Assembly: GCF_003334785.1 (NCBI RefSeq)
Contig: NZ_QOWV01000001.1
Length of the DNA stretch: 64,000 bases
DNA from: Escherichia coli
GTDB taxonomy: Bacteria; Pseudomonadota; Gammaproteobacteria; Enterobacterales; Enterobacteriaceae
Reading direction: 5' to 3' (one strand)
Under the pieces are notes generated by a model, which worked only from the letters and a program-made list of their open reading frames with translations, was not told the DNA's origin and did not search any database. How positions within the stretch are numbered: the stretch's first letter is position 1; each line of letters begins with the position of its first letter. Positions 51,110 to 53,686 of this stretch are shown here, in pieces. The position numbers and the translations under genes are program-made.

Positions 51110-52957
51110 ATGTTGCTTAATATGATGTGTGGTCGTCGGCTGTCGGCAATCAGTTTGTGCCTGGCCGTAACATTCGCTCCACTGTTCAATGCGCAGGCCG
51201 ATGAGCCTGAAGTAATCCCTGGCGACAGCCCGGTGGCTGTCAGTGAACAGGGCGAGGCACTGCCGCAGGCGCAAGCCACGGCAATAATGGCGGGGATCCA
51301 GCCATTGCCTGAAGGTGCGGCAGAAAAAGCCCGCACGCAAATCGAATCTCAATTACCCGCAGGTTACAAGCCGGTTTATCTTAACCAGCTTCAACTGTTG
51401 TATGCCGCACGCGATATGCAACCCATGTGGGAAAACCGTGATGCTGTTAAAGCCTTCCAGCAACAGCTGGCAGAGGTGGCGATTGCCGGTTTCCAGCCGC
51501 AGTTTAATAAATGGGTAGAGTTACTGACCGATCCTGGTGTTAACGGGATGGCACGCGACGTGGTGCTCTCTGATGCGATGATGGGCTATCTCCATTTCAT
51601 TGCAAATATTCCGGTCAAAGGCACTCGCTGGCTATATAGCAGTAAACCTTATGCACTTGCAACGCCGCCGCTCTCGGTGATTAACCAATGGCAGCTGGCG
51701 CTGGATAAAGGTCAATTGCCTACGTTTGTTGCAGGACTGGCACCGCAGCATCCGCAATATGCGGCGATGCATGAATCGTTACTGGCCTTACTCTGTGACA
51801 CCAAACCGTGGCCCCAACTGACCGGCAAAGCAACGTTGCGCCCAGGGCAGTGGAGTAACGACGTACCGGCGTTGCGCGAAATATTGCAACGCACAGGCAT
51901 GTTGGACGGGGGGCCGAAAATTACTCTACCTGGCGATGACACGCCAACTGACGCGGTAGTCAGCCCATCCGCTGTTACTGTTGAAACAGCAGAAACTAAG
52001 CCGATGGATAAGCAAACGACGTCTCGTAGTAAACCTGCGCCTGCCGTTCGCGCCGCCTACGATAATGAACTGGTGGAAGCCGTTAAACGTTTTCAGGCAT
52101 GGCAAGGATTGGGGGCAGATGGTGCTATTGGCCCGGCAACACGTGACTGGTTAAACGTAACGCCCGCCCAGCGTGCTGGCGTGTTGGCTCTCAACATCCA
52201 GCGATTGCGCTTGCTGCCAACAGAGCTTTCTACCGGGATCATGGTTAACATTCCGGCCTATTCGCTGGTCTACTATCAGAACGGCAATCAGGTGCTGGAT
52301 TCGCGAGTCATTGTCGGTCGCCCCGATCGCAAAACGCCGATGATGAGCAGTGCCCTTAACAACGTAGTGGTAAACCCGCCGTGGAACGTACCTCCAACTC
52401 TGGCACGCAAAGATATTCTGCCAAAAGTGCGCAACGATCCGGGATATCTCGAAAGCCATGGCTATACGGTGATGCGCGGCTGGAACAGCAGAGAAGCGAT
52501 TGACCCATGGCAGGTTGACTGGTCTACAATCACGGCCTCGAATTTACCGTTCCGCTTCCAGCAGGCTCCAGGCCCACGGAACTCGCTGGGGCGCTATAAA
52601 TTCAATATGCCGAGTTCAGAGGCCATTTATTTGCATGACACGCCGAACCACAATCTGTTCAAGCGTGATACACGCGCATTGAGCTCAGGCTGTGTACGAG
52701 TGAATAAAGCTTCCGATCTGGCGAATATGCTGTTGCAGGATGCAGGCTGGAATGACAAACGTATTTCTGATGCGCTGAAGCAGGGTGATACACGTTACGT
52801 CAATATTCGGCAGTCGATTCCGGTGAATCTCTACTACCTGACGGCCTTTGTTGGTGCAGATGGTCGTACCCAGTATCGTACAGATATTTACAATTATGAT
52901 CTGCCTGCGCGATCCAGCTCGCAAATCGTATCGAAAGCGGAACAATTAATCAGGTAA
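51110..52957 (+). CDS. ldtD: L,D-transpeptidase LdtD (formerly YcbB)
   Basis: 615 aa; N-terminal signal/anchor; YkuD catalytic Cys in SSGCVRV near C-terminus. Confidence 0.93.
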
Positions 52958-53137
52958 ATGAAGTAGTTCGGGGAAATCAGTTGTCGTAATAATTAGCATG
53001 ATTGGGGGCGATTCTCTGCAGCCCCCGTCACTGCTGGGGTTGAGTCATCTTGACGTCTGCTTTACGGGCGGTTAAGGTGCCTCTTGTGCGCCAGAAGTGC
53101 ATATAAACGATAACATTGACCTGTAGACTTGATTATC

Positions 53138-53686
53138 ATGGACAAATTCGACGCTAATCGCCGCAAATTGCTGGCGCTTGGTGGCGTTGCACTCGGTGCC
53201 GCCATCCTGCCGACCCCTGCGTTTGCAACACTCTCTACCCCACGCCCGCGCATTTTGACACTCAATAATCTTCATACCGGAGAGTCAATCAAAGCGGAGT
53301 TTTTCGATGGCAGAGGCTATATTCAGGAAGAATTGGCAAAACTTAACCATTTTTTCCGCGATTACCGCGCGAACAAAATAAAGTCCATCGACCCAGGATT
53401 ATTCGACCAGTTGTATCGCCTGCAAGGGTTGTTAGGCACGCGCAAACCGGTGCAACTCATTTCCGGTTATCGTTCTATTGATACCAACAATGAACTACGC
53501 GCCCGCAGCCGTGGAGTAGCGAAGAAAAGCTATCACACTAAAGGCCAGGCGATGGATTTCCATATTGAAGGTATCGCGTTAAGCAATATTCGCAAAGCCG
53601 CGTTATCTATGCGCGCAGGTGGTGTAGGATATTATCCACGTAGTAACTTTGTGCATATTGATACCGGGCCAGCACGGCACTGGTAG
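53138..53686 (+). CDS. mepK: Peptidoglycan L,D-endopeptidase MepK (formerly YcbK)
   Basis: 182 aa from ATG 53138 (MDKFDANRRKLLALGGVALGAAILPTPAFA...); twin-arginine-type signal; M15-like peptidase. Confidence 0.9.
   Translation: MDKFDANRRKLLALGGVALGAAILPTPAFATLSTPRPRILTLNNLHTGESIKAEFFDGRGYIQEELAKLNHFFRDYRANKIKSIDPGLFDQLYRLQGLLGTRKPVQLISGYRSIDTNNELRARSRGVAKKSYHTKGQAMDFHIEGIALSNIRKAALSMRAGGVGYYPRSNFVHIDTGPARHW

Follow-up and report, generated by a model that had tools for sequence, protein, structure and literature searches.

Genes and proteins of the locus

The window, a stretch of 64,000 nucleotides of Escherichia coli DNA, carries three consecutive genes, for which RefSeq gives the names ldtD, mepK and gloC and boundaries identical to the following:

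51110–52957, plus strand: ldtD (ycbB), L,D-transpeptidase (open reading frame, NCBIfam, Pfam, RefSeq, match to 6NTW)
53138–53686, plus strand: mepK (ycbK), zinc L,D-endopeptidase of M15/LAS type (open reading frame, NCBIfam, Pfam)
53713–54360, plus strand: gloC (ycbL), MBL-fold hydroxyacylglutathione hydrolase (open reading frame, NCBIfam, RefSeq)

A preliminary description had placed ldtD and mepK side by side on the plus strand, with 180 bp between the ldtD stop and the mepK ATG. The list of open reading frames returns both genes (615 and 182 amino acids) at exactly these coordinates and with this spacing; mechanically, it lets the mepK frame begin with the TTG at 53129, 9 nt before the ATG. 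The gap between mepK and gloC is 26 bp. NCBIfam, Pfam and RefSeq agree on the gene identities given in that description. Many E. coli chromosomes match the 2.9-kb ldtD–mepK stretch at 100% identity, and it occurs in 5426 of 5426 complete genomes. We take the locus to be the chromosomal mukFEB / ldtD / mepK-gloC region of E. coli.

LdtD matches the NCBIfam L,D-transpeptidase family NF007891 with 1201 bits (cut-off 425), and its Pfam domains, Scaffold (residues 93–224), PG_binding_1 (313–348) and YkuD (376–542, E 7.7e-26), stand in the order of the YcbB architecture. The His ... Ser/Thr-x-Gly-Cys motif of the YkuD family is present, with the catalytic sequence SSGCVRV and the codon of Cys528 at 52691–52693, and residues 31–615 match PDB entry 6NTW. 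Formation of 3-3 (mDAP-mDAP) cross-links by LdtD is published (PMC6478713; bioRxiv 10.1101/2021.02.12.430937; PMC12729407). Compared with LdtD of E. coli K-12 (YcbB, b0925; 6NTW), no difference was found in the window copy, which has the same 615 amino acids, domain order, SGC motif with Cys528 and 30-residue signal.

MepK matches NCBIfam NF053624 over its full length (274.9 bits, cut-off 185) and the Pfam family Peptidase_M15_2 (DUF882, E 3.3e-61). The putative zinc ligands H133, D140 and H173, which would form the LAS/M15-type site of His-x6-Asp plus a downstream His, are invariant in 33 diverse homologues. By profile, the nearest solved relative is the zinc D-Ala-D-Ala carboxypeptidase of Streptomyces (1LBU), where the ligands of the family profile align to SRH...AAD...HTH (E 5e-4); a single-sequence search of PDB chains with MepK gave only spurious leucine-rich-repeat matches (E 7e-4 or weaker). 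Specific cleavage of 3-3 cross-links by MepK has been published (Chodisetti and Reddy 2019, cited by PMC8262268 and by PMC12729407), and MepK-type activity is required when LdtD performs all cross-linking (bioRxiv 10.1101/2021.02.12.430937; PMC12729407). Here too, no difference from the K-12 protein (YcbK, b0926) was found; both have 182 amino acids, the Peptidase_M15_2 domain and a signal identical to the tabulated Tat signal.

Export signals of LdtD and MepK

The N-termini of the two proteins are annotated as follows:

51110–51199, plus strand: Sec-type cleavable signal peptide of LdtD, residues 1–30 (n-, h- and c-regions, orthologues, PMC6478713)
53138–53227, plus strand: Tat signal peptide of MepK, residues 1–30 (motif conservation, published Tat tables and genetics)

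LdtD had been described as carrying an ordinary N-terminal anchor, which has to be replaced by a cleavable Sec-type signal peptide. The n-region is basic (R9, R10), the hydrophobic core spans residues 11–24 (Kyte-Doolittle about 2), within the 10–15 residues or so usual for a Sec h-region, and small residues occupy positions -3 and -1 (A-x-A, ending in AQA), with cleavage before D31 (DEP). SignalP 4.1 assigned residues 1–30 of YcbB as signal peptide, and the crystallography paper describes YcbB as lacking a transmembrane tether and being released in soluble form into the periplasm (PMC6478713). LdtD contains an RR pair of its own, which was overlooked earlier. However, orthologues keep the A-x-A end and not the RR pair (GRQL, DFRL, YRLS and others stand in its place), and it is followed by L-S-A instead of x-F/L-L; thus, it does not represent a Tat motif. 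Following cleavage of the Sec signal, LdtD is released into the periplasm, where the YkuD domain (Cys528) builds 3-3 mDAP-mDAP cross-links.

The N-terminus of MepK reads MDKFDANRRKLLALGGVALGAAILPTPAFA and contains the twin arginine, with the motif N-R-R-K-L-L-A at residues 7–13 (RR codons at 53159–53164) and A-F-A at the end of the signal; this corresponds to the S/T-R-R-x-F-L-K type of motif at the boundary of n- and h-region. The pattern x-R-R-x-L/W-L occurs in 119 of 120 close homologues, the one exception being N-terminally truncated, and none of 33 homologues with 41–66% identity to the E. coli protein departs from R8 and R9. Among 84 short-form representatives drawn from 50%-identity clusters, 81 carry RR followed by x and two hydrophobic residues within the first 70 residues (7.5 expected by chance, maximum 17 in 200 shuffles), and their position profile is [S/T/N]-R-R-x-[F/L]-[L/I]-[K/G/R]. 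Published tables of Tat substrates include MepK with an identical signal peptide (PMC7549933), and the protein counts as a Tat substrate in both E. coli and Salmonella (PMC7549933, PMC8262268). The twin-arginine-type signal ascribed to mepK is thus borne out by its sequence, its family and the literature, as is the proposal that the two enzymes take different routes, Tat for MepK and Sec for LdtD (PMC7549933, PMC8262268, PMC6478713).

AmiA and AmiC of E. coli are, like MepK, Tat-exported periplasmic hydrolases with S/T-R-R-x-L-L type signals ending in A-x-A, and the three proteins are grouped as the Tat substrates behind the beta-lactam sensitivity of tat mutants (PMC7549933, PMC8262268). AmiA and AmiC are amidases, whereas MepK is an endopeptidase; they still function upon rerouting to Sec, whereas MepK retargeted to Sec by the OmpA signal did not complement a Salmonella tat mutant (PMC8262268). 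MepK very probably leaves the cytoplasm by the Tat pathway through its N-R-R-K-L-L signal peptide; it cuts the 3-3 bonds that LdtD builds, which makes room for new wall material while LdtD-type cross-linking is in use.

Spacer elements and transcription units

Four elements outside the coding sequences may bear on the transcription of the genes:

50936–50950, minus strand: CpxR-box-like direct repeat GTAAAGAAGTTTAAA, about 165 bp before the ldtD ATG (motif, conservation)
52994–53036, plus strand: GC-rich hairpin after the ldtD stop, arms GGGGGC (53004–53009) and GCCCCC (53021–53026) (folding)
53050–53078, plus strand: predicted sigma-70-type promoter of mepK, TTGACG (53050–53055), 17-nt spacer, TAAGGT (53073–53078) (conservation)
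53086–53102, plus strand: inverted repeat GTGCGCCAGAAGTGCAT, short and conserved, immediately after the promoter (alignment block)

Promoter-like sequence between the genes had been noted before and is indeed present, as TTGACG-17-TAAGGT, away from the site called by a simple scanner; the scanner's own promoter at 53110–53139 was rejected, since its -10 element overlaps the mepK start codon. When 39 spacers of diverse Enterobacterales were aligned (mean column identity 57%), TTGAC and the G-TA-GT columns of the -10 region proved to be the sole invariant columns, and TAAGGT, TATGGT or TAATGT stands at the same distance in all of the 65 unique spacers. The inverted repeat GTGCGCCAGAAGTGCAT may act as an operator or else fold into a stem-loop at the 5' end of the mRNA; by eye and not by formal count, its variants GTGT...ACAC, GTGC...GCGC and GTGT...GCAC preserve the pairing.

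The hairpin is probably a 3'-end or terminator structure of ldtD. The best simple fold of the E. coli hairpin has -21.2 kcal/mol, and in each of the 65 unique spacers a hairpin, differing in sequence, occupies the same position, with a median of -19.7 kcal/mol. As the hairpins are out of register, RNAalifold returned no aligned consensus structure for the 39 spacers; sequences were folded individually instead, yielding z < -2 against shuffles in 43 of 65. The E. coli hairpin is devoid of a clear T-run and was not called by the terminator scanner, which leaves read-through from ldtD into mepK possible. The fold of the whole 191-nt spacer has z = -4.4; the idea of the spacer as one structured RNA was rejected, because conservation is limited to local hairpins. 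An Rfam scan of 50800–54600 (E up to 1) gave no match in the spacer, its sole matches being REP-related and downstream of gloC.

The blocks ATGAAGTAGTTC and TTGTCGTAAT (52958–52990) are conserved within the first 80 nt past the ldtD stop, ahead of the hairpin. CpxQ, which is cut from cpxP, would be a model for a small RNA from the ldtD 3' end. It is quite unlikely that these 80 nt represent an undescribed regulatory element; if they did, they might yield a Cpx-dependent small RNA or else open a long mepK leader driven by sigma-E, which would tie production of the breaker to that of the maker.

Upstream of ldtD, where the scanner places a mukB terminator, the repeat GTAAAGAAGTTTAAA shows one mismatch to GTAAA-N5-GTAAA. 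Across the whole window there are 6 CpxR-like repeats where 3.4 would be expected, which alone is not significant. The box is kept in 53 of 62 unique Enterobacterales ldtD upstream regions and occurs in only 3 of 62 ldtD–mepK spacers. From motif and conservation, we infer that CpxR may bind at 50936–50950. Membership of ldtD in the Cpx regulon is published (PMC4791840).

On the other hand, ycbK-ycbL has been reported as a sigma-E-induced putative operon, with inductions of 9.7x and 6.6x (PMC2731931, Table 2), and a sigma-E ChIP peak lies at ycbK in Salmonella. A canonical sigma-E promoter (GGAACTT-16-TCTGA, at least 5/7 and at least 4/5 matches) was not found in 52700–53160; a relaxed scan gave one weak, position-conserved candidate, AGTAGTT-15-TCGTA, just past the ldtD stop, and Rhodius 2006 gives no ycbK promoter. 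Hence, the promoter model leaves the action of sigma-E on mepK unexplained.

Very probably, ldtD forms its own Cpx-induced unit behind the conserved CpxR-like box; its stop is followed by the hairpin and then by the TTGAC-17-TAAGGT promoter, which would drive mepK together with gloC in the unit reported to be sigma-E-induced. The closest transcriptional partner of mepK is the downstream gloC and not ldtD, so that ldtD and mepK would be neighbours and not an operon. With separate units and separate export routes, maker and breaker lie adjacent to each other, yet would be wired to different envelope-stress inputs and export machines.

Alternative readings and significance of the pair

Export of MepK by Sec would fit several observations; its RR pair would then be fortuitous, as the one in LdtD seems to be. 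Tat-signal profiles of Pfam and NCBIfam (PF10518, TIGR01409) did not match MepK at E up to 10, which for a peptide of 30 residues counts only weakly against a Tat signal; such short-motif models are easily lost in HMMER filters. The h-regions of MepK and LdtD hardly differ in hydrophobicity (Kyte-Doolittle of residues 11–27, 1.75 vs 1.76), which alone cannot tell the routes apart. Long-form DUF882 proteins (about 500–730 amino acids), with a catalytic domain 43–56% identical to MepK and a 390–520-residue Ala/Pro-rich extension after it, mostly go without the RR motif (23 of 27) and show N-termini of Sec-like character, so the MepK fold has no strict need of Tat. These proteins are probably alphaproteobacterial, a guess from the GapR gene and 62% GC at a single locus, and the two loci examined have no transpeptidase adjacent; that they might be MepK-LdtD fusions was rejected, as BLAST shows no LdtD similarity in the extensions. 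Nevertheless, the twin arginine with its S/T/N-R-R-x-F/L-L/I context throughout nearly all short-form representatives, the published substrate tables and the failure of OmpA-signal MepK in Salmonella (PMC7549933, PMC8262268) make Sec export of MepK highly improbable. Transcription of both genes as one operon from the ldtD promoter, both rising under Cpx stress and the spacer being merely intercistronic, appears improbable as well. It would agree with the shared strand, with an adjacency kept throughout Enterobacterales and with some read-through at a hairpin unscored as terminator. However, a short gap free of internal promoter and terminator is not what is found here: within the 180 bp lie a -35/-10 pair that never varies and a stable hairpin conserved in position, and the CpxR-like box lies upstream of ldtD only. 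Moreover, published arrays count ycbK-ycbL, but not ycbB, among the sigma-E-induced genes (PMC2731931), and the named Cpx-controlled peptidoglycan modifiers are ldtD, slt and ygaU, with ycbK unmentioned (PMC4791840).

A different question is whether the adjacency has any function, or whether it is inherited gene order and the shared bond target a coincidence. In a scan of genome contigs, the best 80 loci, all from Enterobacterales, have gloC downstream of mepK (80/80) and ldtD directly upstream (78/78 with upstream DNA). The whole block mukB-ldtD-mepK-gloC-aspC-ompF-asnS is syntenic in this order, and conservation within Enterobacterales could hence be simple inheritance. A single-protein synteny set (n = 12) comprised 2 Enterobacterales and 10 distant loci, one of which (L093) was too short. 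Of the 9 informative distant loci, 6 have no transpeptidase next to mepK. The other three (L004, L091, L007; MepK 46–57% identical) have a YcbB-type transpeptidase directly upstream; flanks unrelated to the E. coli block surround the pair in L004 (46% GC) and L091 (58% GC), and L007 (38% GC) retains mukB and gloC. This recurrence, together with genetics that ties both activities, argues against coincidence, and adjacency without function appears possible, if somewhat doubtful. There may be a selective reason for the two genes lying together. As a side observation, one strain carries an IS4 upstream of ldtD, not between ldtD and mepK.

Taken together, the locus very probably holds a known pair, i.e. 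the Sec-exported LdtD and the Tat-exported MepK in neighbouring but separate, differently regulated units. Both the pair and its different export routes are already in the literature, and the pair is real and ordinary. LdtD is known as the E. coli bypass of penicillin-binding proteins, involved in survival of beta-lactams and of outer-membrane assembly defects, and MepK as the hydrolase enabling growth on a 3-3-linked wall. The comparative additions are modest: a Tat motif that is family-wide in short-form MepK and mostly missing in the long-form branch, an invariant mepK promoter behind a conserved hairpin, and a CpxR-like box only upstream of ldtD. These details leave current understanding unchanged and fit two enzymes that are kept together and controlled separately.

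Locus and enzyme identities

The region is E. coli chromosome: a 2.9-kb query (50850-53750) occurs in 5426/5426 complete genomes, and its identity to many complete chromosomes of the species is 100%. RefSeq annotates mukF-mukE-mukB, ldtD, mepK and gloC on one strand, with aspC, ompF, asnS and pncB on the opposite one. The coordinates and 180-bp spacing claimed for ldtD and mepK in the preliminary description are exact, both open reading frames and the gap matching:

50854-50875: hairpin with T-run, after mukB
50936-50950, minus strand: CpxR-box-like site GTAAAGAAGTTTAAA, upstream of ldtD, one mismatch to the CpxR consensus GTAAA-N5-GTAAA
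51110-52957, plus strand: ldtD open reading frame, 615 aa
53050-53054: invariant TTGAC of the -35 hexamer of the predicted mepK promoter
53073-53078: -10 hexamer, 17 nt downstream of the -35, within G-x-TA(A/T)GGT (G, TA and GT invariant)
53138 (ATG) to 53686, plus strand: mepK open reading frame, 182 aa

For LdtD, the NCBIfam L,D-transpeptidase equivalog NF007891 gives 1201 bits (cut-off 425). The protein displays the Pfam domains Scaffold, PG_binding_1 and YkuD and contains SSGCVRV with Cys528; its residues 31-615 align with the YcbB crystal structure 6NTW. MepK, a Peptidase_M15_2 (DUF882) protein, reaches 274.9 bits with its NCBIfam equivalog NF053624 (cut-off 185). When 33 homologues with 41-66% identity to the E. 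coli protein are aligned, H133, D140 and H173 never vary. The profile of this alignment matches 1LBU (E 5e-4), a zinc D-Ala-D-Ala carboxypeptidase whose metal-binding motif aligns with these three residues; with the MepK sequence alone as query, PDB chains yielded spurious matches only. The enzymatic roles are assigned from the literature. LdtD makes 3-3 cross-links and is able to bypass PBPs (PMC6478713, PMC12729407, bioRxiv 10.1101/2021.02.12.430937), and MepK is the L,D-specific endopeptidase required during this bypass (PMC8262268, PMC12729407).

Export of MepK and LdtD

The proposal that the two enzymes take different export routes is upheld by conservation of the MepK Tat motif together with published work, and by a Sec-type signal on LdtD. 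The MepK N-terminus, MDKFDANRRKLLALGGVALGAAILPTPAFA, is tabulated as this exact peptide among predicted E. coli Tat signals (PMC7549933). Salmonella MepK is handled as a Tat substrate; AmiA, AmiC and SufI complement in Salmonella when Sec-routed, whereas MepK carrying the OmpA Sec signal does not complement the tat mutant (PMC8262268). Neither Pfam nor NCBIfam gave a Tat-signal match for MepK, which is weak negative evidence for a motif this short. The signal was assessed by motif conservation. Among close homologues x-R-R-x-L/W-L occurs in 119/120, the remaining one being truncated. For 84 short-form representatives of 50%-identity clusters (165-215 aa), RR-x-hydrophobic-hydrophobic lies within the first 70 residues in 81, versus 7.5 (maximum 17) when shuffled; K-R replaces RR in two of the three exceptions. 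Their position profile, [S/T/N]-R-R-x-[F/L]-[L/I]-[K/G/R], is the textbook Tat consensus.

The LdtD N-terminus comprises 30 residues followed by DEP. It does contain an RR pair, but L-S-A follows, and orthologues show RQ, FR, YR, SR or nothing in its place while retaining the A-x-A end. YcbB has neither transmembrane tether nor lipidation and is set free as a soluble protein after Sec-type signal cleavage (residues 1-30, SignalP 4.1; PMC6478713). The N-terminal anchor formerly ascribed to LdtD is contradicted by these data; otherwise the earlier interpretation is right.

Long forms (412-730 aa) account for 29/150 of the best MepK-family representatives. The MepK domain comes first in 28/29, followed by an Ala/Pro-rich extension; P0241 alone carries it C-terminally. 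Fusion to LdtD was considered and rejected, as BLAST shows no LdtD similarity in the extensions. The RR motif is absent and the N-terminus Sec-like in 23 of 27 long forms starting with Met, which argues that the MepK domain, as predicted from N-terminal motifs, is not always exported by Tat. This branch (~500-730 aa) includes P0148, P0165, P0173, P0207 and about 25 others, with loci L088 and L089; L088, the one long contig, has 62% GC and a gene for GapR, features suggestive of Alphaproteobacteria.

Control regions of ldtD and mepK

The single CpxR-box-like match at 50936-50950 is insignificant within 64 kb. Such a motif is kept in 53/62 unique Enterobacterales ldtD upstream regions versus 3/62 ldtD-mepK spacers, and PMC4791840 includes ldtD in the Cpx regulon. 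The distance between this box and the ldtD start codon is ~165-195 bp for Escherichia, Citrobacter and Salmonella and ~95-113 bp for most other Enterobacteriaceae; comparison of 50951-51109 with the relatives' loci L023-L069 implies ~70 bp inserted in the leader of these three genera. Another CpxR-box-like site, GTAACCAAAAGTAAA (57240-57254), lies upstream of ompF. In E. coli strain SW070917 (locus L094, 345-1691) an IS4 interrupts the region upstream of ldtD, separating the gene from mukB, and may alter ldtD expression.

Promoter-like sequence had also been described in the 180-bp spacer, and an alignment of 39 spacers drawn from diverse Enterobacterales, with column identity averaging 57%, bears this out: only ten columns are invariant, and all ten fall in the TTGAC of the -35 hexamer or in the G-x-TA(A/T)GGT that holds the -10 hexamer. 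Upstream of this promoter a GC-rich hairpin occupies the same place, with differing sequence, in 65/65 unique spacers (best simple hairpin median -19.7 kcal/mol; z < -2 in 43/65). A short T tract follows its GC core in many genera and is absent from E. coli, where a terminator scanner makes no terminator call for the hairpin. Just 3' of the promoter lies a conserved short inverted repeat (GTGCGCCAGAAGTGCAT, 53086-53102), a candidate 5' stem-loop or operator; variants that preserve its pairing occur in Pectobacterium, Samsonia, Pantoea and Yersinia. The 20 nt leading up to the mepK start codon (CCTGTAGACTTGATTATC, 53118-53137) are well conserved, without obvious Shine-Dalgarno sequence.

gloC begins 26 bp 3' of mepK. 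Sigma-E overproduction raised ycbK 9.7-fold and ycbL 6.6-fold, the two being listed as a putative operon (PMC2731931), and Salmonella ycbK has a sigma-E ChIP-seq peak (PMC4577112). No canonical sigma-E promoter was found in a scan of 52700-53160; the sole candidate, AGTAGTT-15-TCGTA directly 3' of the ldtD stop, is weak and conserved in position (AGTAATT-15-TCTGA at this place in Serratia). Conserved blocks ATGAAGTAGTTC and TTGTCGTAAT at 52958-52990, immediately after this stop, are better conserved than the neighbouring hairpin sequence and may represent either a 3'-end RNA element or a weak promoter for sigma-E; the TTGTCGTAAT block reads GGTCTGAAT in Serratia and Yersinia. The gloC-aspC spacer (54418-54500) matches Rfam ES036 (CssrF, 53 bits, above gathering score) and naRNA4 (below it), probably REP-type repeats.

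Adjacency across relatives

Of the best 80 Enterobacterales loci of a genome scan, 78 include upstream DNA, and in every one of these mepK is immediately preceded by ldtD (median spacer 181 bp), an adjacency that, taken alone, could be inherited synteny. Nine informative distant loci, whose MepK homologues show 44-57% identity, bear on this. A YcbB-type transpeptidase lies directly upstream in three (L004, L091, L007) and in none of the other six; the association is thus recurrent without being universal. Flanks are not shared with E. coli in L004 (46% GC) and L091 (58% GC), and mukB and gloC are retained in L007 (38% GC). A functional link behind the adjacency is plausible and consistent with the genetics. 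Everything essential on the ldtD/mepK locus is already published or annotated, and the comparative details presented here refine this picture without altering it.
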